DNA of 59,884 bases. Origin: Coleofasciculus chthonoplastes F2-STO-03. GTDB taxonomy: Bacteria > Cyanobacteriota > Cyanobacteriia > Cyanobacteriales > Coleofasciculaceae. The stretch's first letter is position 1. The number at the start of each line of letters is the position of its first letter. A program made the position numbers and the translations under genes. The notes under the pieces were generated by a model. The model was not told the origin of the DNA. It saw only the letters and a list, made by a program, of their open reading frames with translations, and made no database searches. Shown in pieces: positions 4,204 to 33,599 of this stretch. The stretch is from assembly GCA_040222015.1 (NCBI GenBank), contig JAVJWO010000045.1, positions 1 through 59,884 of the forward strand, written 5' to 3'.

Positions 4204-7164
4204 ATGTCTGATCCAACCCCGATCGCTTCCAACCCAACCCCATCCCTGAATGGAAACCAACCCCCCAGCCAAAACACGATCCGCATCCGGGGTGCCAGAC
4301 AACATAACCTAAAAAACATTAACCTTGATCTCCCGCGCGATCGCCTAATCGTCTTCACAGGTGTCTCCGGTTCCGGTAAATCCTCCCTCGCCTTCGATAC
4401 CATCTTCGCTGAAGGGCAACGCCGCTACGTGGAATCCCTCAGCGCTTACGCCCGTCAATTCCTCGGACAACTCGATAAACCCGACGTAGACGCCATTGAA
4501 GGCTTAAGCCCTGCGATCTCCATTGACCAAAAATCCACCTCCAATAATCCCCGTTCCACCGTGGGTACCGTTACCGAGATTTACGACTACCTGCGCCTAT
4601 TATTTGGTCGCGCTGGAGAACCCCACTGTCCGATCTGCGATCGCAACATCGCCCCTCAAACCATTGACCAAATGTGCGATCGCGTCATGGAACTCCCCGA
4701 TCGCACCAAGTTCCATATCCTCGCCCCTGTCGTCCGAGGCAAAAAAGGCACACACAAGAAGCTACTCTCCAGTTTAGCCGCTGAAGGATTTGTGCGCGTC
4801 CGCGTCGATGGCGTGATCCAATCTCTTTCTGATCCAATTGAATTGGATAAAAATTATACCCACACCATTGAAGTGGTGGTTGATCGCCTAATCAAAAAGC
4901 CGGGACTCCAGGAACGTTTAACCGACTCCCTGGCAACCTGTCTCAAGCTTAGCAGTGGAATTGCAGTAATCCAGGTATTAAATGATTCAACCGCCGTCCC
5001 ACCCGACTCAAAGTCTATACCGACTGAGGAAAAAAATGCAACGTCTTCCGAGCAACACCTCCCCCAAGAAATCGTCTTTTCGGAAAACTTTGCCTGTCCC
5101 GAACATGGCGCTGTCATGGAGGAATTATCCCCCAGACTGTTTTCCTTTAACTCCCCCTATGGCGCTTGTCCTCACTGTCACGGATTAGGCAATTTACGCA
5201 CCTTTTCCCCCGAACTCGTTGTCCCCGAACCCAGCCAACCGATATACTGTGCGATCGCGCCTTGGTCGGAACGAGATAATTCCTATTACTTGTCCCTACT
5301 TTACAATATCGGACAAGCTTATGGTTTTGAACTGGGAACGCCGTGGCAGAAACTGAATCCCGAACAGAAACAGGTGATTCTCTATGGGGCGGATAATCCA
5401 ATTTGGATCGAAGAATTTAACGATTACCGCCGTTATCGGGGGGTACTTCCGATCCTGCAAAAGCAATATGATGAAACCAGTTCCGATACTTATAAACAGA
5501 AATTAGAGCAATATTTAGTCGATCAACCCTGTGAAGTCTGTAAAGGGAAACGGTTGAAGCCAGAAGCCCTAGCGGTACGACTGGGACAGTATCGGATTAC
5601 GGATTTAATAGAGGTTTCCATTGGCGAAAGTCGCCAACGAATTGACCAATTCCAACTCTCATCCCGTCAAGCAAAAATAGGTGAACTCGCCCTCAAAGAA
5701 ATTAAGGCACGATTGCAATTTCTCTTAGATGTCGGCTTAGATTATCTCACCCTAGATCGAGCAGCAATGACCCTTTCTGGTGGAGAAGCCCAACGAATTC
5801 GTCTGGCGACTCAGATTGGTGCAGGATTGACCGGGGTTTTATATGTATTAGATGAACCGAGTATTGGCTTACATCAACGAGATAATGGGCGGTTATTAGC
5901 CACCTTACAAAAATTGCGGGATTTAGGGAATACCTTAATTGTGGTGGAACATGATGAAGAAACCATTCGCACGGCTGACTGGATTATCGATATTGGTCCG
6001 AAAGCCGGAATTCATGGGGGCGACATTGTGGTTCAGGGAAATTTCACGGAATTACTCAATAGTGAAACATCGTTAACGGGTTCCTATTTATCCGGACGTC
6101 AGATCATTGAAACACCAGGGGAACGGCGCAAAGGGAATGGGCGTTTATTGGCTCTCAAAAATGCCCACCGAAATAACCTCAAACATATTGATGTAGAGAT
6201 TCATTTAGGTAAGTTGGTTTGCATTACTGGGGTTTCCGGTTCCGGGAAATCTACGTTAGTGAATGAACTCCTTTATCCAGCGTTGCAACATCATTTAAGT
6301 CGAAAGATACCCTTTCCAAAAGAGTTAAGTAAGGTCAAGGGATTGAATGGCGTAGATAAAGCGATTGTCATTGATCAATCCCCAATTGGCAGAACCCCCC
6401 GTTCTAATCCTGCCACTTATACTGGGGTATTTGATGTGATTCGCGGACTCTTTGCTGAAACCATCGAAGCCAAAGCCAGAGGCTATAAAGCTGGACGGTT
6501 TTCGTTTAACGTTAAAGGGGGACGCTGCGAAGCTTGTGGCGGACAGGGAGTTAATGTAATTGAAATGAATTTTCTTCCCGATGTTTATGTGCAATGTGAG
6601 GTTTGTAAAGGCGCAAGATATAACCGAGAAACCTTGCAGGTGAAATATAAGGGATATTCAATTGCTGATGTTTTAAATATGACAGTGGAGGAGGCGCTGG
6701 AGGTATTTAAGAATATCCCGCGTGCGGTGAATCGTTTACAAACTCTCGTGGATGTAGGGTTAGGCTATGTGCATTTAGGACAACCTGCACCCACCTTATC
6801 CGGAGGCGAAGCGCAGCGGGTGAAATTGGCGACGGAGTTATCGCGACGGGCGACAGGAAAGACGTTGTATTTAATTGATGAACCAACAACGGGATTATCG
6901 TTTTATGATGTGCATCATTTGTTAAATGTGTTGCAGCGATTGGTGGATAAAGGGAATTCTGTGTTGGTAATTGAGCATAATTTAGATGTGATTCGCTGTA
7001 GCGATTGGGTGATTGATTTAGGTCCTGAAGGGGGCGATAAAGGCGGAGAAGTGATTGCGGTGGGGACGCCGGAGGATGTGGCGGAGAATGAAAAATCGTA
7101 TACGGGGATGTATTTAAAGGAGGTGTTGAAGCAGTATCCGCCGCAAGTAGAAAGTGTTAGTTGA
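4204..7164 (+). CDS. uvrA: Excinuclease ABC subunit A
   Basis: Two GVSGSGKS Walker A motifs, two LSGGEAQR signatures and CxxC zinc fingers. Confidence 0.99.
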
Positions 7165-7564: not shown

Positions 7565-9433
7565 ATGAACCATGAGCATCAAACAAGGGTAGAACACTTT
7601 GCTACCCTTAAGGTTAAGTACAAAGCCACCGACTATGAAGACTCATCCCCCACGAGTCTGTTGTATTTCATCCTGCGAAAAGCTGACTTGGGAATTGAGA
7701 TCATTGAGGTTGAGGTAATTTGGCTCATAGATCATCAACTTTTGCAAACACTTAAAGTGATCCGTGAGCAATACAGACAGAGAAAAAAAGAACTTAAACA
7801 ACTAGAAAATGAATTTGAAAAGTTAACATCTAAGTATACAGAAACAACGTTCCATGGTTACTGGAAATCCACGCCGCTTTACTTTATACTATTGAGACTG
7901 GATTCAGGAAATAAGCTAACGGGTTCAGAAATTAAATGGCTGCAATATTGTGGTTATACCGAGACAATTACAATCGCTCAACAGATAGAAGACTTTGCCA
8001 AATTGAAAGCCAAGTACCAGGCGATTAAATATCAAGATTTATCCCCTGATAATCGGCTGTATCGAATCTTAAAAAAACTGGAGGCAAAAGAAAGGTTACA
8101 TGATTCAGATATTACCTGGCTGAACGAACAGGAATTATTTGAAACCTTGGCAATTTTCCAGCAACAAGAAGCCGCAAAGGAAGCTGAATTTGCTCAACTC
8201 AAGGATAAGTATAAAGCGACTAAACAGTCGGATTCGTCTTTATCCAGTCCGCTGTATCCTATTCTAAAAAACATTGATACAGATCAGTCGTTAAGTCAGT
8301 CACAAATAGACTGGCTGGAGGCGCATCAACTGATTGAAACCCTTGATATTGTTCAGCAGTTGGAACAGAAGCGACACTTTGCTGAACTGAAAACAAAGTA
8401 TAAAGCTAGCCAATACGAAGATTCATCACCCTCTAGCCACCTGTACAAAGTCTTGAAAAAACTTGAATCAGAACATCCGCTAGGTGAAGAGGATATTAAT
8501 TTTCTAAAAAAGCGTCAATTAACTGATACAATTACTATCGCTCAAGACAACTACGCAGCGACGCTAAAGTCCAAAATTGAATTAGGAGATCAACTGGAGG
8601 AGTCAGAGGTAGACTGGCTAAAAGATAATGAACGGGAGAATATAATAGCGATCGCGCAAGCTAAACACTTTGCCACTCTGAAGTCTAAGTATAATGTCTC
8701 GGACTATCAAGATACATCTCCCTCTAGCCCTTTATACGCGATTCTGCAAAAGCTTAAAAAAGCAGAACGTTTGGAACCAACGGATGTGGCTTGGCTTCAG
8801 GAGAATAAAATTAAACGTCGTCAATCGAACTATGGTTATTATGGAGGGCGAGAGGAAGGATATAAACTGTTCTCTGGAAAGATTCGGAATACTTACCACA
8901 AAATTGAAGCAACCTTCTACGAACAAGAGTATCAGCGCACTAGCAACAAATGGAATTTGCCCAATGCTAGCAGTCATTGGCGTAAGGCAGATCAACCCAA
9001 ACAGGCATTAAAACTGACAGAAAACCTCAACTTTGACAAAATTAAAGAAAATAAACTTAAATCAGCATTACTAACCACTAGAGGTGGAGCATTTCGAGAT
9101 ATTCATGAATTAAATAAAGCGGAGAAGTGTGCGCTTAAAGCGATTGAGTATCAACCCAGTAGCCATCACCCTTATACCTTAATGGGTGCAATTTGTTTTG
9201 AAAGGGGGCAGTATTCAAAAGGAGAAGAGTGGTTTGACAAGGCAATTAAACGGGGGGCTTCTCCCAGAGATCAGGATGCTGAGATGAAGCGAGTGGTTAA
9301 AAATGCTAAAGATGAGAACAAGCGCCGCGAAGTTGTGAACTATTTACTGACAAAAGATCCACAACGGTATGCTTGGGCTAAGTTTTATCTGAAAAAGTCT
9401 AAAAAGAAAGGAAAAGGACAAGGTAAAAGATAG
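7565..9433 (+). CDS. Protein with about six ~60-aa helical repeats and a C-terminal TPR-like domain
   Basis: Repeated F..LK.KY....Y.D.SP...LY.IL.K......L....I.WL unit; C-terminal ALLTTRGGAFRD / AIEYQP..HHPYTLMGA TPR helices. Confidence 0.85.
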   Translation: MNHEHQTRVEHFATLKVKYKATDYEDSSPTSLLYFILRKADLGIEIIEVEVIWLIDHQLLQTLKVIREQYRQRKKELKQLENEFEKLTSKYTETTFHGYWKSTPLYFILLRLDSGNKLTGSEIKWLQYCGYTETITIAQQIEDFAKLKAKYQAIKYQDLSPDNRLYRILKKLEAKERLHDSDITWLNEQELFETLAIFQQQEAAKEAEFAQLKDKYKATKQSDSSLSSPLYPILKNIDTDQSLSQSQIDWLEAHQLIETLDIVQQLEQKRHFAELKTKYKASQYEDSSPSSHLYKVLKKLESEHPLGEEDINFLKKRQLTDTITIAQDNYAATLKSKIELGDQLEESEVDWLKDNERENIIAIAQAKHFATLKSKYNVSDYQDTSPSSPLYAILQKLKKAERLEPTDVAWLQENKIKRRQSNYGYYGGREEGYKLFSGKIRNTYHKIEATFYEQEYQRTSNKWNLPNASSHWRKADQPKQALKLTENLNFDKIKENKLKSALLTTRGGAFRDIHELNKAEKCALKAIEYQPSSHHPYTLMGAICFERGQYSKGEEWFDKAIKRGASPRDQDAEMKRVVKNAKDENKRREVVNYLLTKDPQRYAWAKFYLKKSKKKGKGQGKR

Positions 9434-9749: not shown

Positions 9750-9900
9750 AGGATCTATCCTGTTGGGTAAACGTGCGATCGCGCAACTGATGTGACTTAC
9801 TATTTACCGATATAAACCTGCCCCGATTCCATCCTAGATGTGACAGATTTATTATATTGGTAGGATATCCGAAATCTTGATTAAACCACCCCTTAGATGG

Positions 9901-10575
9901 ATGATGAAATACAATCCCCAGAAACATCATCGCCGTTCGATTCGGCTCAAGGGATATGATTATACCCAAACAGGTGCTTATTTTATCACCGTATGTACAT
10001 GGCAGCGCCAATGTTTATTGGGTGAGATAATCAATGGGGAAATGCAACTGAGTCGCTATGGTGAAGCCGTCAAATTTAATTGGGATATCTTACCCAAACG
10101 TTACGACGGTGTTCGATTAGATGCTTTCATCATTATGCCAAATCATGTACATGGGATTATTTTTTTGCACGATTGGGGTGGAGAGGGGGCGGGTTTAGAT
10201 ACGTTATTCCCAAAAACCGCTACGTTGGTTGTCAAACCCGCCCCTACAGAATCTATCGCGTCGGGAAAATCCAGCCATAAACAATCGAAAATTTACGGAT
10301 TGCCGGAAATTGTTCGCGGCTTCAAAACCTTTTCATCCCGTCGCCTCAATCAACTTCGTTCCCAATCGGGTATCCCTGTATGGCAACGGGGTTATTATGA
10401 ACATATCATCCGCCACGAAGAATCTTTGACCGCTATTCGTGACTATATCCTAAAAAATCCCTGGGATTGGCATAACGATGATTTGCATCCTGAGAATCTC
10501 CATAGCTGGGAGGAATCTTGTCCTCTGGTATTTGAATTTCAGGGCAAATCTCACACTCAGGTTATTGTCAGATAA
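9901..10575 (+). CDS. REP-associated tyrosine transposase (RAYT, Y1/HUH family)
   Basis: RRSIRLKGYDY, YFITVCT, MPNHVHGII (HUH), WQRGYYEHIIR, YILKNP (catalytic Tyr); flanked by GTAG REPs. Confidence 0.92.
   Translation: MMKYNPQKHHRRSIRLKGYDYTQTGAYFITVCTWQRQCLLGEIINGEMQLSRYGEAVKFNWDILPKRYDGVRLDAFIIMPNHVHGIIFLHDWGGEGAGLDTLFPKTATLVVKPAPTESIASGKSSHKQSKIYGLPEIVRGFKTFSSRRLNQLRSQSGIPVWQRGYYEHIIRHEESLTAIRDYILKNPWDWHNDDLHPENLHSWEESCPLVFEFQGKSHTQVIVR
10185..10247 (-). repeat. In-frame REPIN within the RAYT coding sequence
   Basis: Encodes GAGLDTLFPKTATLVVKPAPT just after the HUH motif. Confidence 0.9.
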
Positions 10576-15397: not shown

Positions 15398-15632
15398 GTC
15401 AGGAACCTCTCGGCTTACAGCCGTGGGCTTGAAAAAGCCCATACCTGACGAGCCTAAGACCTACATGGTGTACGTTATGCCCAAGAGTTAAAGTTCCTAC
15501 CTTAGGGTGTGTGCCAGCCCTGAGCTGCTAGAACTTCAGCATTAAACAGGTGTACAGGGTTAAGCCAGTGTGCTGGAGAAAGTACCGAGGCATAACATTG
15601 GCAAGGCAAACGTTACCCCAGTTAAATGGGAG
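15398..15632 (+). ncRNA. HEARO RNA / IscB-type omega-RNA scaffold, orphan (no iscB)
   Basis: GTCAGG..CCTGAC closing stem, CGGCT-TAC-AGCCG hairpin, GGGCTT-GAAA-AAGCCC, AGCCTAAG, TACGTT, AAGAGTTAAAGTTCCTACC, TTAAACAG..GGGTTAAGCCAGTG, AACATTGGC.AGGCAAAC.TTACCC. Paired arms GTTATGCC/GGCATAAC, CTTAGGG/CCCTGAG and TTCAGCA/TGCTGGA. Confidence 0.85.
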
Positions 15633-15704
15633 CGCCCTTCACGTGAGCGTATTGCCACTAGGCAAATTCAAGTAAACGCCGGATCAAAGAAAAAGGATTG
15701 TTGG

Positions 15705-24676: not shown

Positions 24677-24745
24677 TCGCCAAAACCTTTGATCTACCGT
24701 AGGGTGGGCATTGCCCACCAGCATACCAGTCAGTAAAATTCGACT
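24677..24745 (+). repeat. REP-containing element, left inverted copy flanking the TPR gene
   Basis: TCGCCAAAACCTTTG..CCGTAGGGTGGG-CATTG-CCCACCA.CATACCAGTCAGT; inverted homologue at 26106-26185. Confidence 0.85.
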
Positions 24746-24928
24746 GAAGACGGCTGATGAAGCAAGCACAAGCAACAATAAAGATTGCCATGCTAAGTCT
24801 ATAGATAGAAGAGTCTTTCTTAATTGGGTTAAAGTTATGGGTTTTCTCTGTTACAATCCTCTTTGGTCAAAATTTCTGCTCTTAAAACTGGCACTGAACC
24901 CTAACCTATGCCTCTTGAGGATGTCCTG

Positions 24929-26101: not shown

Positions 26102-26105
26102 ATTA

Positions 26106-26185
26106 AGTTGAATGTCACTGACTGGTATGGTGGTGGGTTTCGACTTCGCTCAACCCACCCTACGGCATACCAAAGGTTTTGGCGA
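26106..26185 (-). repeat. REP-containing element, right inverted copy flanking the TPR gene
   Basis: Reverse complement reads TCGCCAAAACCTTTG..CCGTAGGGTGGG-TTGAGCGAAGTCGAAA-CCCACCA.CATACCAGTCAGT. Confidence 0.85.
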
Positions 26186-26517: not shown

Positions 26518-26847
26518 ATGAAACAACTACCTTTACGTCTCCTAAGCTCCAGCTTACTCGCTACTAGCATTACCCTCATGTCCGGCTTTGTTTCAGCCAA
26601 CGCGGTACAAGCCTCAGCTATTTCCTTTGATAACACCACCACATCAACAAATACACTTACCCATGACGCTTCCGCTCAAGTAAATGAGGCAAATAGAAGA
26701 TTACCCATTAGCACTATGCCTCATATTCCTGAGCATAATCCTAATCATGATGATAGTCCGACGTCCCAACCCACTATGCTAATAAGTTTTGCCTTAATCG
26801 TTGGTTCTATCGCTGCCACAGCCGCACGTTATCGGCAGTCTTGCTAA
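26518..26847 (+). CDS. Small secreted protein with a PEP-CTERM-like C-terminal anchor
   Basis: Signal peptide ending VQA; C-terminal QP + hydrophobic helix + basic tail (SQPTMLISFALIVGSIAATAARYRQ). Confidence 0.55.
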   Translation: MKQLPLRLLSSSLLATSITLMSGFVSANAVQASAISFDNTTTSTNTLTHDASAQVNEANRRLPISTMPHIPEHNPNHDDSPTSQPTMLISFALIVGSIAATAARYRQSC

Positions 26848-26903: not shown

Positions 26904-27000
26904 ACCCCAAAAAACGCGATGCAAGGGAGCGCACGCCTCTAAGCTGATCACACACCCCCTCTCAGTTGTACTCCATCCCTGTTGCTGTCTAGTCTTAAGA
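26904..27000 (+). repeat. HIP1-anchored cassette-boundary repeat, copy 1 (degenerate)
   Basis: CCCCAAAAAACGCGAT...GATCACACACCCCCTCTCAGTTGTACTCCATCCCTGTTGCTGTCTAGTCTTAAGA aligns with copies at 27777, 28215 and 30378. Confidence 0.75.
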
Positions 27001-27060
27001 GTAATTATGTACTATACGCATACTATACGATAATCAGGTAAGTCCTCAATTGACATTCCC

Positions 27061-27100
27061 GTCAACTCAGTTGACAGCGTATTGACGATGTAAATACATC
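27061..27100 (+). promoter_or_regulatory. Putative brnTA promoter/operator
   Basis: TTGACA at 27071; palindromes GTCAACT-C-AGTTGAC and GATGTA-AA-TACATC just upstream of the toxin ATG. Confidence 0.5.
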
Positions 27101-27118
27101 CTGCTTACACTTAGAGAC

Positions 27119-27415
27119 ATGGACGTATATTTCGTACTCAACGGCATTACCTTTGTTTGGAATGAACAGAAGGCGCGGCAAAATTCTTCTAAGCATGAAG
27201 GTGTTACCTTCCAACAGGCTACAGAAGCTTTCTTCGATCCCTTTTTAGTTGTCGTTGATGCGAGTCGCAATGATGAAGCGCGAGATGCTGTCATTGGTTT
27301 GGATAAACGCTGGAATCTCCTGTATGTGGTTCATATTGAGCGGGATGATGACATGATTCGGGTTATTTCGGCTCGTAAAGCAACAAAAAAGGAGCGTGAA
27401 TACTATGAAAACTGA
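27119..27415 (+). CDS. BrnT family toxin
   Basis: F.WNEQKA..N..KH.GVTF..A...F.DP; IRVISARKATKKER..Y. Confidence 0.92.
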   Translation: MDVYFVLNGITFVWNEQKARQNSSKHEGVTFQQATEAFFDPFLVVVDASRNDEARDAVIGLDKRWNLLYVVHIERDDDMIRVISARKATKKEREYYEN

Positions 27416-27689
27416 AGCTTTGAAAAAACGATTGGATAAAAACCGTCCAATGACCAGTATCACCATTCGCATTCCAGAAGATGTGGTTGAGGATCTCAAG
27501 CGCGTGGCTCCATTACTGGGTTTTTCGGGTTATCAACCCTTAATTCGCGCCTATATTGGTCAGGGGTTACGAGCTGATCTTGAGCGATTAGAAGGAGATA
27601 CGGTTTCTGCTTTAATTGCTAGTCTAAAGCGTCGCGGCGTGAGTGATGATGTGATTCATGAAGCACTCAGCGAAGTGGCTCAAAACTGA
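27405..27689 (+). CDS. BrnA/CopG-like antitoxin
   Basis: RHH-like ITIRIPEDVVEDLKR..GYQPLIR.YI; overlaps the brnT stop. Confidence 0.85.
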   Translation: MKTEALKKRLDKNRPMTSITIRIPEDVVEDLKRVAPLLGFSGYQPLIRAYIGQGLRADLERLEGDTVSALIASLKRRGVSDDVIHEALSEVAQN

Positions 27690-27703
27690 ATCTGATTAGA
27701 GAG

Positions 27704-27845
27704 GCGATCGCACGGACTCACCCCAAAACACGCGATCGCACGGACTCACCCCAAAACACGCGATCGCACGGACTCACCCCAAAACACGCGATCGCACACC
27801 TTCTATCAGTCTTACTCTATCTGTGTTTCTATCCAGTCCAAGTTA
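27704..27845 (+). repeat. 3x 28-bp HIP1 tandem repeat followed by boundary repeat copy 2
   Basis: GCGATCGCACGGACTCACCCCAAAACAC x3 (HIP1 at 27704, 27732, 27760, 27788), then ACACCTTCTATCAGTCTTACTCTATCTGTGTTTCTATCCAGTC. Confidence 0.9.
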
Positions 27846-28166
27846 AGTTCGTGCCTGCCACGACTTGGGATCTCGCCGACTATGAAAAATTGCCGTCACA
27901 ATTACCCGACTTGATACAATCCGATAGTACACGGCATAAGGAAAACGTCGCACTACTGCCCCTGAATCGATCCTTTTTTAAGACCAGAATGCCTGTGTTG
28001 AGTATCTATGATAGCGCGATCGCACTTTAAACTGAACTTTCCCCGGTGCCGATGTACTACACCTAGGTTAAAGCCTCATCCAGTAAGGGTTTGAGAGGTG
28101 ATAGGCAAAAAGCGTAATGGGTACAACCTTCGACTCTGATGGCATACCCTCTGAATCCTATAAGGC

Positions 28167-28401
28167 TTGATGTGCGATCTCACTCTACCCCAAAACACGC
28201 GATCGCATTCTCCACCCCAAAACACGCGATCGCACACCCTCTCTCAGCCTCACTCTATCCCGGTTGCTGGCTAGTTTTGAGACACCGGATGAACTGATAC
28301 CGCCTCAGTCAATATCATCGGGTAAGTCGTTGATTGAGAGTCCCCCCTGTTCCAATAAAGCTTGTAGCCGCTTTATTTGGGAAAAAGTGAACTTAATGCG
28401 C
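28167..28401 (+). repeat. Long direct repeat left of the Fic gene (includes boundary repeat copy 3)
   Basis: Homologous to 30354-30565; the 3' ~115 bp are nearly identical. Confidence 0.9.
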
Positions 28402-28773
28402 TGATGTTGACCCTAAAAGCATCTCATCCGAATTTACACAACACGGATAGAAAAGTGAACGGATAGAAAAGTTCTGAATTTAGTGACCAAATTGGTGAAC
28501 CGCTAGAACAGGAATCCGAAGATGAATTCGTGAGACGCAGCAGCAATGCATTGAGGCAGATGCTTTATGAGAAGTTTGGTATCAAGAGTTAGGGCGATAC
28601 TCAAGCGATCCCACCTGCTGTTCACCTTAGCCAAACTTACACCACACAGGTAGAAAGGTGAGGAAGGCTTTGTGTGCGATCGCCTTTTGGGGTGTTACTG
28701 CAAGGTGATAGGTGGAGCGATTGGTGTTAAGTCGCTGTTAGACTGTTTAGTAAATTTGTGGGTATATTCAGAT

Positions 28774-30240
28774 ATGCTGTGGCAACCGATAGAAGATTTA
28801 ACATCAAACTGGCAAAATTTGGCTAGTTCTGAGTTGCCGCCCTTAGTAACTGTTTGGGATGAGCAAGCAGAACGCCTTCGCACATCTGGTGAGTTCAAAA
28901 CTTTCATGGATAGGCTACGCCGAGAGATAGCCATCGAAACTGGAATTATTGAGCGGTTATACACTATAGATCGAGGAATAACTCGCCTTTTAATTGAACA
29001 AGGAATTAACGAAGCTCTGATTCCTCATGGAGCTACAGATCGTCCTATACAACAAGTAGTGTCTTTAATTCAGGATCAGGAAGCTGCAATCGAAGGACTA
29101 TTTGATTTTGTAGGTGGACAGAGGACTTTATCGACATCTTATATAAAGCAATTACACCAGGTTCTAACTGAAAATCAAGATAGTGCAGAGGCATTAGATC
29201 CATTGACAGGAAAAATCATTCCTGTTCGTCTCATACGAGGTGACTGGAAGCGGCAACCTAACAATCCAATGAGACCAGATGGAACTATTCACGAGTACTG
29301 TCCTCCAGAACAAGTGGCATCGGAAATGGATAGATTGATTGGATTGCATCATCAACATCAAAACCAGAAAATTCCTCCTGAAATCGAGTCAGCTTGGTTA
29401 CATCATCGATTTACCCAAATTCATCCATTTCAAGATGGTAATGGTCGAGTTGCTCGATGTCTTGCTAGCTTAGTTTTTATTCAGGCTGGATGGTTTCCCC
29501 TGGTTCTTACCCGCGATGATCGTGCAGCTTACATTGCAGCTTCAGAGCAAGCAGATCACGGTAATTTACAAAGCTTAATCAATCTTTTTTCTAAGAGCCA
29601 AAAGCAAGCTTTTATCCGTAGTCTTGGCTTATCAGAACAAGTTTTATCAGAGACAAGACGTACTCAGATCATTATTGCTTCCATTGCTGAAAAGTTGAAG
29701 CAAAATCAGTCAGCATCTCTTCAAAAGCGAAATCTTAAAGTTGAAAAATTCGCTGCTAATTTATTTGACATTGCCTATATTCGTTTACAAGATGTTGCCA
29801 ATGAAATAAAACTATCTGTTCAAAATTTAGTAAGTAATGCTGATATTTTTACAATTTATGCTCCTGTTGGGGATGCTCGCTCATACTACCATCGTTACCA
29901 AATCGTAGAAACTGCTAAACAGTTAGGATACTTTGCCAATCTCCGTAGTTATCATACTTGGATGCAATTAGTTATTGATGTAGAAACATCAACGACTTTT
30001 TTGCTGTCATTTCATGTTCTGGGACATGAGTATCGCGGTTTACTTGTATGCTCTGCCTGTGCGTACCATAGAGATAATACAGAAGAAGGTGAGCGAAACA
30101 TTAGTGACATTCAAGCTTTATCAGATTCTCCATTCCAGTTCTCTTATGCTGATGATGAAGGCAATTTGATAGAGCGTTTTAAGCAGTGGCTAGAAGATGC
30201 AATTTTGACGGGTTTGGAATATTGGAACAAGAGTCTCTAA
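28774..30240 (+). CDS. Fic family protein (AMPylase) with an extended C-terminal domain
   Basis: HPFQDGNGRVAR catalytic motif; N-terminal ETGIIE autoinhibitory-like helix; start at MLWQPI preferred. Confidence 0.92.
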   Translation: MLWQPIEDLTSNWQNLASSELPPLVTVWDEQAERLRTSGEFKTFMDRLRREIAIETGIIERLYTIDRGITRLLIEQGINEALIPHGATDRPIQQVVSLIQDQEAAIEGLFDFVGGQRTLSTSYIKQLHQVLTENQDSAEALDPLTGKIIPVRLIRGDWKRQPNNPMRPDGTIHEYCPPEQVASEMDRLIGLHHQHQNQKIPPEIESAWLHHRFTQIHPFQDGNGRVARCLASLVFIQAGWFPLVLTRDDRAAYIAASEQADHGNLQSLINLFSKSQKQAFIRSLGLSEQVLSETRRTQIIIASIAEKLKQNQSASLQKRNLKVEKFAANLFDIAYIRLQDVANEIKLSVQNLVSNADIFTIYAPVGDARSYYHRYQIVETAKQLGYFANLRSYHTWMQLVIDVETSTTFLLSFHVLGHEYRGLLVCSACAYHRDNTEEGERNISDIQALSDSPFQFSYADDEGNLIERFKQWLEDAILTGLEYWNKSL

Positions 30241-30245
30241 TTTGG

Positions 30246-30325
30246 GTAGGGGCGCACCGACGTGCGCCCTCCAAGGTTGCGGTTCTAGCCGATAGTTTGA
30301 TGGGCGTATGCCAGGAAGCCCCTAC
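30246..30325. repeat. REP doublet, GTAGGGGCG family
   Basis: GTAGGGGCGCAC-CGAC-GTGCGCCC and GGGCGTATGCCAGGAAGCCCCTAC. Confidence 0.7.
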
Positions 30326-30353
30326 AGTCAGGTTGTTTTGTAATATAGGAAGA

Positions 30354-30565
30354 CTTGATGTGTGATCGCACTCTCCATCCCAAAACACGCGATCGCACTC
30401 CCTCTTTTTGTCTTACTCTATCCTTTTTGCTGTCAAGTCTTGAGACAACCCGATGAACTGATACCGCCTCAATCGATATCGTCGGGTAAGTCATTGATTG
30501 AGAGTCCCCCCTGTTCCAATAAAGCTTGTAGCCGCTTTATTTGGGAAAAAGTGAACTTAATGCGC
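30354..30565 (+). repeat. Long direct repeat right of the Fic gene (includes boundary repeat copy 4)
   Basis: Homologous to 28167-28401. Confidence 0.9.
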
Positions 30566-30777
30566 CGTCCTCAGCCTTGACATCTTCAGTATTTACGTCT
30601 TCAAATGAAGGTACAACAAGCTCTATCACATACTCGAACATAGTTTTCTTCAGACCGCTCGCTATATATAGTCATCTGTTTAGGTGCAATCTCTGTGGTC
30701 TAACTTAGTCTTTGAGAGTTACACCAATTCCTCTGTTTCAATTGCTCACAACAGTTTAAACCTAAGCTTTACTTTCC

Positions 30778-31179
30778 CTAGATAAAAAGTGCTGGAGAAA
30801 CGTGAAAAAACTCTCCCAGAGCTTTAGCTTGGGCTTTGCTAATTGACCTTTTGCCATTAACTATCTCTGAAACAATACCCTTTGAACCTATAACTCCAAC
30901 TAAATCTGACTGCTTAAGCTCTCGCGCATCCATAAGATGCAACAAAATATTCTGTGGAGATGATGGTTCTACAGGAAACTGAGAATCTTCATAAATTTCA
31001 ACAAGGATAGACAGCAATTCCAGCAGTGAATTTTCCTCTGGAGTAAGTTCTTCTCCACGTACCATCATTTGCTCTATTGATTCAATAGTATGATTGTACT
31101 CATCTTCGGAAGCAATGATTTTAGGTTGGTATGCTGCTAGGAGAGAACCGTAAGTTTTGTTGTCCAGAATGATAGCCAT
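30778..31179 (-). CDS. HigA-type HTH antitoxin
   Basis: PKII..EDEY, LLELLSILVE.YE, LKQSDL..VIGSKG.VSEIVNGKRSISK.QAKAL. Confidence 0.9.
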   Translation of the reverse strand: MAIILDNKTYGSLLAAYQPKIIASEDEYNHTIESIEQMMVRGEELTPEENSLLELLSILVEIYEDSQFPVEPSSPQNILLHLMDARELKQSDLVGVIGSKGIVSEIVNGKRSISKAQAKALGEFFHVSPALFI

Positions 31180-31259
31180 GATTGAATAAGTATTATTAGT
31201 CAAGGAAAGTTTCGACATTGTGTAGGCAGGGAGGTTAGCACTCCCCGCCAGTATCTCAG

Positions 31260-31583
31260 TTACGGGGTTTTATTAGATTGCTTTTTAAAATAAGGATCAT
31301 CTTTCCATTTTTCAGCTTCATATTCATCATGACTTAGGAGATATTTGTAATAAAATATTTGAGCTTGAAAATTAAAACCTACAATCAAGCGATATGTTTT
31401 GATATTAAAAATTAGAAAATTTTCTACTTGGTCTACGGATCTATTATAAGTTTTACGTATATCATCTAGATGTTGCCACTTGGCTTTTTGAACTACATCA
31501 CACCATGCTTTAACTGCTTCCTGTATATTTGGTGGAAATTTTTTAGAATCTTCCATAACATTCGGCCTTTTGATTAATCGCAT
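31260..31583 (-). CDS. HigB family toxin
   Basis: W...V.KAKW...DI...Y..D, IFNIK..YRLIV, L.HDEY...KW. Confidence 0.88.
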   Translation of the reverse strand: MRLIKRPNVMEDSKKFPPNIQEAVKAWCDVVQKAKWQHLDDIRKTYNRSVDQVENFLIFNIKTYRLIVGFNFQAQIFYYKYLLSHDEYEAEKWKDDPYFKKQSNKTP

Positions 31584-31611
31584 AGGCTACTATGAGTCTG
31601 TACTTCTTAAT

Positions 31612-31628
31612 GTTCTCATATTGAGAAC
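31612..31628. promoter_or_regulatory. Putative HigA operator
   Basis: Perfect GTTCTCA-TAT-TGAGAAC upstream of higB, next to a minus-strand TTGACA (31634-31639). Confidence 0.6.
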
Positions 31629-31793
31629 CAATATGTCAACCCTTACCTTATAAGAGTAAAAGGATCTGACGATCAAGCTTTTATGGAGAGGCGATCGCAC
31701 CCCACACCCCACCCAATCCCCCCTTCCCACATAACCCGGACAGCCAATAGTCTAGACTGAGAGATCGATCATCACAAAAAAGGGAACCTAACG

Positions 31794-33599
31794 ATGCGAC
31801 TCTCTCAAATGCTACTCGTCACCCTCCGGGAAGACCCAGCCGAAGCCGAAATCCCCAGCCATAAACTCCTGGTTCGCGCCGGCTATATCCGTCGCATCGG
31901 TAGCGGAATCTACGCTTATCTCCCCCTGATGTGGCGCGTCTTACAAAAAGTCTCCCAAATCGTTCGGGAAGAAATGAACGCCACCGGTGCCCAAGAATGC
32001 TTACTTCCCCAACTCCAACCCTCAGACCTGTGGCGAGAATCCGGACGCTGGGACACCTATACTAAAGCAGAGGGGATCATGTTCGCCCTCACCGATCGCC
32101 AAAACCGAGAACTCGGACTCGGACCAACTCACGAAGAGGTAATCACCACCATCGCCCGTGAAATGATCCGTTCCTATCGCCAACTTCCTCTCCACCTCTA
32201 CCAAATTCAAACCAAGTTTAGAGATGAAATCCGCCCTCGGTTTGGACTAATGCGGGGACGAGAATTCATTATGAAAGACGGCTACTCCTTCCACGCCGAT
32301 GAAGAAAGCCTGAAAAAAACCTATCAGGACATGGATCAAGCCTATCGCAACATGATCAGCCGTTGCGGTTTAGCCTTTCGCGCCGTGGAAGCTGATCCTG
32401 GCGCAATTGGCGGTTCCGGTTCCCAAGAATTTATGATTCTGGCGGATATTGGGGAAGATGAGATTCTCTACACCGAAGATGGGAACTATTCTGCCAATGT
32501 GGAAAAAGCCAGTTGCCTCCCGGCTGATCCTCAACCGTCTCCCTTTGAGACTTACGAAAAACGGGAAACCCCCAACACACCCACCATCGACTCCCTCTGT
32601 CAATTCCTCAACTGTTCGCCAACCAATGTCTTGAAAAACGTCCTCTATCAAGCCGTTTATGACAATGGGATGACAGTACTGGTAATCATCAGTATCCGAG
32701 GCGATCAAGAGGTTAACGAGGTGAAGCTGCAAAATGAATTAATTCGTTTAGCCGATCGCTATAAAGCCAACGCCCTCATCGCCCTAACCGTTCCCGACGC
32801 CACTACCCAGGCAAAATGGGCGTCTAAACCCCTCCCTGTCGGCTATATCGCCCCAGATTTAGAGGATGATTACATCCGCCCCAGTAGCGATGTAGCCCCC
32901 CAATTTTTACGCTTAGTCGATAATACAGGGGTTGACCTGAAAAAGTTTGTCACTGGGGCAAACGAAACCAATTATCACGTCGTTGGTGCGAATTGGGGTG
33001 AACCCTTCCCCTTACCTAAACAGGTGGTAGATTTGCGGACAGCCAAAGCAGGCGATCGCGCGATTCATGATTCTAGCCAAATTCTACACAGCGCCAGGGG
33101 AATTGAAGCCGGACATATCTTTCAGTTAGGCACTAAATATTCTAAAGCCATGGGTGCGACGTACACCAACGAAGCTGGCGAAGAAAATCCCCTTTATATG
33201 GGATGTTATGGTGTAGGCGTATCGCGACTGGCGCAAGCCGCCGTGGAACAATCCTATGATCAGGATGGAATTATTTGGTCACCCGCGATCGCACCCTACC
33301 ACGCGATTATTACCGTTCCCAATATCTCCGACACCAAACAGATGGAAGCCGCCGAGACACTTTACCAACAGTTATGGCAAGCTGGTGTAGAAACTCTACT
33401 CGATGACCGGAATGAACGGGCGGGAGTCAAGTTCAAAGACGCCGATCTGATTGGCATTCCCTATCGCATTGTCACTGGGCGATCGCTGAAACAGGGTAAA
33501 GTGGAAGTTGCAGTGCGGGCAACGCACCAGTCTCAAGAATTGCCCCTGGATCAGGTGGTTTCTACGCTTAAACAATGGCTTGATGCGGCATTAACGTAA
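31794..33599 (+). CDS. proS: Proline--tRNA ligase
   Basis: [39 protein letters not shown]; editing insertion domain present. Confidence 0.99.

Follow-up and report, generated by a model that had tools for sequence, protein, structure and literature searches.

Directly upstream of proS, the prolyl-tRNA synthetase gene, Coleofasciculus chthonoplastes F2-STO-03 carries an array of toxin-antitoxin (TA) and other genes interspersed with four copies of a repeated unit that contains HIP1, an 8-bp palindrome common in cyanobacteria. The array occupies positions 26904 to 31793 of the 59,884-nt stretch of contig JAVJWO010000045.1 that we analysed (hereafter the window), and it had originally been predicted to be an integron-like system that captures and shuffles genes at HIP1-containing sites. 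Comparison with relatives (G000 denotes the window's own genome, G001 and so on its relatives, C a contig and L a fetched locus) leads us to lean towards viewing this region as a decayed copy of a proS-anchored gene-acquisition hotspot that is family-wide in these filamentous cyanobacteria.

The left flank is a gene for a secreted PEP-CTERM-like protein (26518..26847, plus strand), which is 95% identical in G001, G002, G005 and G007 and is retained at the array edge in most examined members of the genus. The first unit copy (26904..27059, plus strand) comprises a CCCCAAAA arm, a HIP1 site split by an insert of about 27 nt, a promoter relic and, on the minus strand, the last codons of an XRE gene, which are fused to the upstream region of brnTA. 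The brnTA block (27119..27689) consists of brnT (27119-27415, plus strand), recognized by Pfam, and a brnA-like antitoxin gene (27396-27689, plus strand) whose Pfam score falls below the cut-off; a HIP1 site lies 14 nt past the stop codon of the latter. Tandem 28-bp HIP1-CCCCAAAA repeats with four HIP1 sites (27704..27797, plus strand) lead into the second unit copy (27788..27842, plus strand), a diverged short form joined to the stop codon of the toxin gene parE. The 3' end of parE (27843..27961, minus strand), a gene that is whole in G003 and G005 at 97-98% identity, is followed by the upstream region of the parDE operon (27976..28186, minus strand; 98% identical to G005), and the genes that belong between these two pieces are deleted.

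The third unit copy, with HIP1 repeats of its own (28174..28343, plus strand), runs into the 3' half of a type A XRE repressor gene (28305..28413, minus strand; 97% identical to residues 47-81 of P0002). Beyond it are the 3' end of a 107-amino-acid cargo gene (28473..28592, plus strand), which is whole in G026 from another genus and 98.6% identical over 141 nt, and a HIP1-bounded spacer (28605..28695, no strand). A Fic-domain protein (28774..30240, plus strand), identified by Pfam and 86-87% identical to cargo of G003 and G005, precedes a GTAG-type pair of repetitive extragenic palindromic (REP) sequences with a tail (30239..30361, plus strand), as found after the Y gene of intact modules described below. 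The fourth unit copy and its HIP1 arm (30362..30507, plus strand) adjoin a second type A repressor stub (30469..30565, minus strand) and a minus-strand block (30565..31690) holding higA (30778-31218), higB (31260-31583) and a truncated downstream gene, which as a whole is 94.4% identical to G029. HIP1 and the upstream and promoter region of proS (31691..31793, plus strand), a homologue of the 5' half of the unit and the putative growth point of the array, complete the locus ahead of its conserved right anchor, the Pfam-identified proS gene (31794..33599, plus strand). Of the repressor module, the window thus retains only stubs: the 3' half of a single repressor type, present twice, without any Y gene.

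Much of the earlier description of the individual features stands. Pfam confirmed brnT, Fic, higB and the helix-turn-helix higA downstream of the unit copies, with brnA below the cut-off as noted, and a motif said to mark two sites, GAGAGGCGATCGCAC, does start at 27699 and 31686 (four copies genome-wide). Other features took on a more specific identity. The segments labelled gene fragments include an identifiable parE 3' end, a parDE upstream region, two type A repressor 3' halves and ends of cargo genes that are whole in other genera. A proposed inverted short form of the unit exists (28672-28695, 79% identity over 24 nt) as the right end of the HIP1-bounded spacer, a stretch of about 85 nt that also occurs in arrays of at least eight other genomes.

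All four unit copies lie on the plus strand, as originally proposed, with tails at 26946, 27790, 28228 and 30391 that agree with the consensus tail at 49, 42, 50 and 48 of 55 bases, respectively. A profile of the unit recovered exactly these four copies from the 7.7-Mb genome (E 5e-33 to 4e-5), and blastn found none on the other contigs. The conserved unit proved longer than the 68 nt first assigned to it, measuring about 150 nt, and its right half consists of the stop and last codons of a minus-strand gene for an 81-amino-acid XRE helix-turn-helix protein. With copy 3 as the query, matches were obtained in 28 of 61 genomes, including 24 of 36 from the family and all eight from the genus, and these matches are mostly clustered, on the same strand and about 150 nt long.

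The left half of the unit, HIP1 aside, matches the stretch between HIP1 and a TAGACT box upstream of proS. The 5' half of the unit matched four of 30 proS upstream regions (E 1e-4 to 5e-3) in a single register, a match that came from the family form of the profile, the genus form having drifted too far to give one. Across 507 kb of fetched loci, eight of the nine best non-unit matches were proS promoters or displaced copies of them, and the top match was a further partial unit. The half that resembles the promoter is missing from XRE homologues found at seven loci outside the proS region. Because the left half matches the proS upstream region and distant XRE copies do without it, the unit is a proS-promoter relic fused to the end of a repressor gene; in full, it is HIP1 plus a disabled proS-promoter relic, in which the TAGACT box has been altered, plus the 3' end of the XRE gene. 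Two other identities were considered and rejected: a conserved reading frame extending beyond the XRE stop, since the frame differs between genus and family forms, and a known RNA, an Rfam scan giving one chance-level match.

In relatives the unit forms part of an intact module, which runs in the order HIP1 repeats, unit, XRE gene (minus strand), operator, a segment of about 70 nt, HIP1, Y gene (plus strand) and REP pair, where Y is a protein of 155-160 amino acids transcribed divergently from XRE. Modules stand in tandem upstream of proS, and the array of G001 contains five repressors and four Y genes. The unit and proS share one fetched stretch in 17 genomes, and no unit, XRE or Y was found at proS in nine fetched family genomes (G009, G017, G022, G028, G032, G034, G036, G071 and G073), two of them represented by short stretches only. 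Close Y homologues (E <= 1e-45) occur in six of 251 genomes of the order, all within this family.

The repressors fall into seven types whose recognition helices differ and each of which is nearly invariant across genera. A palindrome specific to the type is centred about 20 nt upstream of the start codon in all 37 modules examined, one of them weak. Because repressor type and operator strictly co-vary, the most likely role of each XRE is repression of its own divergent promoter by way of a type-specific operator. At four-fold sites, repressors of the same type differ across the genus boundary by 33% (326/981) compared with 53% (1910/3592) for proS, these being non-independent pairs, and Y sequences group by host genus, which repressor types do not. 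A type is repeated within a proS array only once, against 5.0 expected (P=0.008, 11 genomes, leaving out the two stubs of the window). Among the modules, the segment of about 70 nt after the operator has an inverted-repeat character and is conserved in 37 modules (L016, L017, L022, L025-L035); it is absent from the window's genome, and it is possible that it serves as a small RNA, an attenuator or a right homology arm for repressor swaps. One locus of G029 (L033, about 8141-8230, oriented) shows a clean deletion of repressor gene and operator, from the unit tail to this segment.

Protein Y matches no Pfam, NCBIfam, PADLOC or PHROG family, and an Atlas search returned only unnamed cyanobacterial clusters and no match for its C-domain. 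The best structural matches of the N-domain are KA1-like folds (Z 8.7, rmsd 3.3, 82 aligned residues); the C-domain reaches Z 5.3 at best and weakly matches small uncharacterised phage proteins (E >= 0.008). With no family match and no recognisable catalytic fold, Y was set aside as a candidate recombinase or nuclease. The suggestion that cargo is co-oriented with Y likewise found no support, ten cargo regions being plus, six minus and 16 having no open reading frame (ORF) of at least 160 amino acids. Nine distant Y homologues are present in G000 (C7, C16, C69, C101, C117, C120, C126, C157 and C178), several divergent from XRE and some near DUF262-like or ATPase genes (names assigned by eye); the XRE-Y pair may mark variable islands genome-wide. 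Further XRE types with other recognition helices occur with Y at non-proS loci that lack the promoter relic (L077, L078, L079, L083 and L085).

The genes adjacent to the units are rich in TA and defence functions, an enrichment that the original prediction had proposed to look for. Families identified by Pfam and PADLOC are BrnT, ParDE, HigB, PIN, MazF-like, DUF433/DUF5615, Uma2, Fic, XRE-M78, TIR, AbiTii, Schlafen-RecG, Macro, ADP-ribosylglycohydrolase, C5 methyltransferase, XisI and IetAS. Both content and order upstream of proS vary between strains, and the cargo differs in nearly every array-bearing genome. For example, Fic lies ahead of parE in G003 and G005 and behind it in the window, and brnTA is first in the window array and third in that of G001. 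Beyond one and the same cargo end, one strain has the proS promoter and another strain has a unit. On the right, the array is bordered by proS in every case; its left border varies between genera and in G003 and G008. Cargo crosses genus boundaries, as its sequence identities show: the higBA block is shared at the identity given above with G029, a member of another genus whose proS is only 79% identical, and the 141-nt cargo end links the window to G026 in a third genus.

HIP1 is frequent in the window's genome (6058 sites), as is its extension CGCGATCGCAC (843 copies), and the CCCCAAAA-HIP1 arm is almost restricted to the proS array locus. Among 50 units with HIP1 we distinguished 24 classes of upstream neighbour, defined by dissimilarity and not equivalent to independent events, most of which are joined at the first HIP1. 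In class representatives similarity begins at this site, with identity of 0.21-0.54 to its left and of 0.42-1.0 to its right, where the arm had been filtered on three letters. As a control, we compared the window's genome with G002 and G007 over about 390 kb and found 4 of 102 indel ends (51 indels, outer ends only) within 12 nt of HIP1, which is near the background of 2-3% per sequence; one of the four belongs to the proS array locus. This count led us to reject HIP1 as a general, genome-wide breakpoint, and many joints of the array fall on it at a frequency far above that in the rest of the genome, in line with what had been predicted. A HIP1 site also follows a stop codon within 40 nt in 6 of the 24 array classes versus 53 of 2749 long ORFs, and the same placement is enriched at Uma2 (9/111) and PIN (4/22) genes. 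Because many joints at this locus fall on HIP1 and indel ends elsewhere do not, defined sequences are now available with which to test whether genes are captured by recombination at HIP1.

A 621-nt marine metagenome contig joins 31282-31690 to 28199-28410 through nine shared letters at HIP1, so that the unit beginning at 28199 follows position 31690, where the window's genome has the proS promoter. This joint could come from a circle or from another chromosomal order; none of the sequencing runs searched contained the strain of the window (best share 0.28).

Three outcomes that had been named in advance as speaking against gene capture, namely copies scattered randomly beside core genes, an invariant cargo order and indel breakpoints that avoid the unit, did not appear. 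The idea of capture and shuffling at HIP1 sites holds with regard to the clustered copies, the variable TA cargo and the HIP1 joints. It needed revision in that the unit is a promoter relic, the module is the true repeat and growth is probably anchored at proS.

The anchoring is indicated by displaced pieces of the proS promoter or 5' region, which lie within the arrays of 8 of 32 genomes. Their ends fall at twelve positions relative to the gene (-28, -25, -20, -19, +51, +66, +75, +160, +231, +233, +238 and +887), or about nine events once shared joints are merged; the count excludes matches that overlap units or HIP1 inserts, a proS start at a contig end in G004, a local repeat in G009, a weak match in G025 and a short match to a cargo end in G014. 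Since these ends vary, a fixed attachment site is disfavoured. Where compared, the pieces share 86-93% identity with the resident proS, and one in G002 is joined to a Y fragment through five shared bases. Such divergence would imply exchange within proS. Right-hand joints also occur at many places within the repressor gene.

We consider it somewhat probable, on these comparative grounds, that the array is a hotspot without an integrase, to which host recombination adds DNA beside proS; proS or module repeats would serve as the homologous anchor and HIP1 as a favoured second joint. Incoming DNA, arriving by transformation or present as a second allele in a polyploid cell, would pair through homology on its right side, provided by proS or by a unit or Y repeat. 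A left end that joined at HIP1 would yield a clean insertion ahead of proS, and one that joined at microhomology in the proS promoter or 5' part would leave a displaced piece behind. One old event of the latter kind could have created the unit, after which unit and Y repeats would act as homology arms through which cargo and repressor types are gained, lost or exchanged. Such a scheme implies a host factor that recognises HIP1.

Published work on HIP1 provides a setting for this proposal. HIP1 is described as having no agreed function in three decades (PMC13756078, PMC5861425), and HIP1-flanked excision as well as plasmid recombination at HIP1 sites have been reported (PMC13756078, PMC4390886). 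A HIP1 site at the end of a short homology arm is reported to raise transformation 7- to about 100-fold (bioRxiv 10.1101/2024.09.10.611283). The competence gene comEC was found in four of the five genomes tested.

Several observations weigh against host recombination at proS and HIP1. All the evidence is comparative, with no event observed directly, and only the position of the similarity edge at HIP1 is informative, the identity levels being set by the way in which classes and right arms were chosen. Three full units have no intact HIP1 nearby, the joints of nine partial or left-truncated units lie within the unit itself, and where cargo adjoins proS its joint often falls in the interval from HIP1 to the -10-like promoter box. 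Two full units lie at non-proS loci (G003:C152 and G007:C44), and comEC was not found in G001 despite its long array. Duplication of the proS 5' region is not the usual outcome of a simple double-crossover replacement. The trait of displaced gene ends is moreover not unique to proS, as 23 5' and 27 3' candidate fragments occur elsewhere in the window's genome, so the underlying process looks general and the proS locus an amplified case of it. The deletion joints of the window were not seen in the four sequencing runs searched and could therefore be assembly artefacts. Finally, a site-specific enzyme could be behind a weak upstream consensus and a partial symmetry around HIP1 (2.6 of 7 pairs versus 1.7, a value that none of 5000 simulations reached), and a gene of the serine-recombinase family is conserved in all five genomes tested. 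Taking these points into account, we still find host recombination the most economical reading and give it a slight preference.

In a bolder scheme that we regard as improbable, the array is a HIP1-directed cassette platform and a cyanobacterial counterpart of integrons. A host factor would recombine HIP1-centred sites and insert TA and defence cassettes in order before the proS promoter, and each module would carry one of at least seven orthogonal repressor-operator switches controlling Y and the cargo behind it.

A further alternative, which seems to us unlikely, is that a dedicated trans-acting site-specific recombinase moves cassettes in and out at HIP1-centred sites before the proS promoter, much as IntI acts at attI. 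The sharp edge at HIP1, the partial symmetry around it, the frequent placement of cargo stops within 40 nt of HIP1 and the 9-bp joint of the metagenome contig would all fit such an enzyme, and a search for a co-occurring recombinase did turn up a candidate. It is a conserved chromosomal protein of 440-460 amino acids with Resolvase, Recombinase and Zn-ribbon domains (in G000, L076:1128-2447 on C26), and a recombinase family protein is correlated with HIP1 abundance in section 13 of PMC13756078, the orthology of the two being only putative. The N-terminal catalytic motif of the conserved gene is atypical as judged by eye. However, nothing found ties this gene to the proS locus, and no recombinase gene is linked to any fetched array. 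The ends of right-hand joints and displaced proS pieces are spread over 12 different places, and 98 of 102 indel ends lie away from HIP1 despite about 6000 genomic sites.

The claim, made from the start, that no integrase or transposase lies inside the array was examined in relatives as well. None of the 12 window ORFs scanned belongs to an integrase or transposase family, and none of the four PF00589 (tyrosine recombinase) matches in the window's genome lies on this contig; G003, with the longest array seen, has one such match. Array ORFs scanned (60 of 124 listed and some others, the remainder being judged shadow frames or duplicates) included no integrase or transposase, the exceptions being an RRXRR-HNH insertion (G003) and a fragment of ISAZ013 that lies at the flank of G029, and no integrase, relaxase or replication family. 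No cognate integrase was present in the fetched loci among the matches listed, several loci ending at contig ends.

These results also bear on the view that each module is the left end of a small integrative element (prophage-, satellite- or ICE-like, that is, related to integrative and conjugative elements). On this view such elements entered one beside another at the proS promoter and later lost the integrase, and the repressor types are immunity groups. Arrays of tandemly accreted cis-mobilizable elements (CIMEs) offer a precedent for such groups. Seven repressor types with their own operators that rarely repeat within a genome are what this view expects, a DnaB-like helicase gene and a tyrosine integrase are found no more than about 5 kb from a related XRE in G000 (C46), and the Y C-domain resembles small phage proteins. 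It is set back by the lack of integrase, relaxase and replication families just described and by the absence of a fixed att core, since displaced pieces have 12 different end positions between -28 and +887. Repeated types would also be depleted if identical neighbours recombined and deleted what lies between them. Furthermore, because Y follows the genus and repressor types do not, the pattern is one of swapping between conserved flanks rather than of whole elements. We thus hold this explanation to be unlikely, behind the dedicated recombinase.

Movement of module and cargo by a REP-associated tyrosine transposase (RAYT, an HUH enzyme) through peel-and-paste is very improbable. A GTAG REP pair does follow Y in intact modules and G000 has 17 Y1-transposase matches, but GTAG REPs abound throughout the genome (25-fold blast depth), HIP1 and not the REP ends marks the sharp joint, and no Y1 transposase occurs in the scanned arrays, the Y1 gene of the window lying 16 kb off without a unit. 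That gene (9877-10575) is a weak, RAYT-like match (23.3 bits against a cut-off of 23). A proposed link between the RAYT locus and the array through a shared HIP1 context did not hold up: none of five nearby HIP1 sites has the CCCCAAAA arm, and CGCGATCGCAC is spread over the genome in the copy number given above.

A true cluster of attC sites lacking an integron integrase (CALIN), or else a portable promoter repeat, shares the gene-then-site layout and TA-rich cargo of sedentary integrons and is largely refuted, hardly any probability being left to it: neither strand of 47 full units contains an attC core pair (RYYYAAC...GTTRRRY), no long bottom-strand hairpin was found, TTGACA occurs on the minus strand of one of the 47 units and forms no promoter-like site, and the TAGACT box of proS is altered in the unit. 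Five minus- and plus-strand folds of the window copies gave z of -1.4 to +1.0 and a sixth gave -2.4 owing to HIP1 pairs, with otherwise short stems only. The window's genome contains no integron integrase (the best TIGR02249 match scores 27.5 bits, the cut-off being 265). The label integron-like is thus apt for the one-strand sites and shuffled TA cargo and fails with regard to attC cores, IntI and the unfixed right-hand joints.

Comparison with known systems places the proS array, under the host-recombination reading, among hotspots flanked by core genes. Hotspots of horizontal gene transfer that lack an integrase owe their diversity to recombination at the core genes flanking them (Oliveira et al., 2017, PMC5635113), and the array shares with them high accessory-gene turnover beside a core gene, fast exchange of defence genes, the lack of a mobility protein and the presence of competence genes. 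It differs from the hotspots described there in growing additively, leaving relics of the promoter and 5' part of the anchor gene, and in containing a module that is repeated internally as well as an 8-bp site at which joints are favoured. Cury et al. (2016, PMC4889954) describe sedentary chromosomal integrons and CALINs, which resemble it in their same-strand sites with variable, shuffled TA and defence cargo, in sites often placed right after a stop codon and in apparent insertion at one end, whereas the proS array has no attC cores or hairpin, no IntI, coding sequence within its site and variable right-hand joints. It works somewhat like an integron in its one-sided accretion of defence cassettes at repeated sites, failing the attC and IntI tests; it is not an integron but a variant of the core-gene-flanked hotspot.

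HIP1-associated recombination provides a third parallel. In smtB excision, plasmid recombination in PCC 7002 and SDR5 insertion, as cited in PMC4390886, PMC13756078 and PMC5861425, joints and small inserts fall at GCGATCGC, as does the insert inside HIP1 in unit copy 1, and the proS array is distinct from these cases in using HIP1 repeatedly at one natural locus and with kilobase cargo.

Tandemly accreted ICE and CIME arrays and phage immunity regions place elements in tandem at a core-gene site, each element opening with an XRE repressor and an operator that differ in specificity from those of the others. The proS array departs from them in having no integrase or fixed att core and in swapping the repressor block between conserved flanks. 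Complex class 1 integrons with ISCR1 grow by homologous recombination into a conserved segment, variable lengths of which are duplicated; unlike these, the proS array has no rolling-circle transposase and no fixed origin end, and the sequences past displaced proS pieces differ.

Full-text literature searches, with most subscription papers outside their scope, found no published description of the proS-side array. The concentration of joints at HIP1 here, and not at indel ends elsewhere, gives the locus its interest; in addition, candidate anti-phage genes can be drawn from the arrays, and orthogonal regulation in cyanobacteria could be tested with the ready set of seven repressor-operator pairs.

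Some further observations concern HIP1 and gene ends at other places. Short inserts of about 14-27 nt lie within HIP1 in the window (26916-26950) and at equivalent sites in G001-G005, G014, G016 and G024. They are reminiscent of SDR5, SDR-like repeats being stated in PMC5861425 to be found only in Nostocaceae. In G049, from another family, a mazEF-like pair sits between tandem 27-30-bp HIP1 repeats (L086:4654-4800 and 5554-5813) that resemble the left arm of the unit, with no unit tail, XRE or proS, which suggests that TA cassettes bounded by HIP1 repeats occur beyond this family.

A duplicate of the last 25 proS codons is present downstream of the gene in G029 (L033, oriented 15593-15667), so the 3' side of proS may also take insertions. 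Similar accretion may take place at other core genes, as short duplicates of gene 3' ends lie downstream of long genes on seven contigs of G000 (C12, C47, C134, C160, C207, C208 and C216). To the left of the array, inverted repeat pairs of 32-35 nt flank a TPR gene (window 24677-24748 and 26103-26185) and are multi-copy and REP-like.

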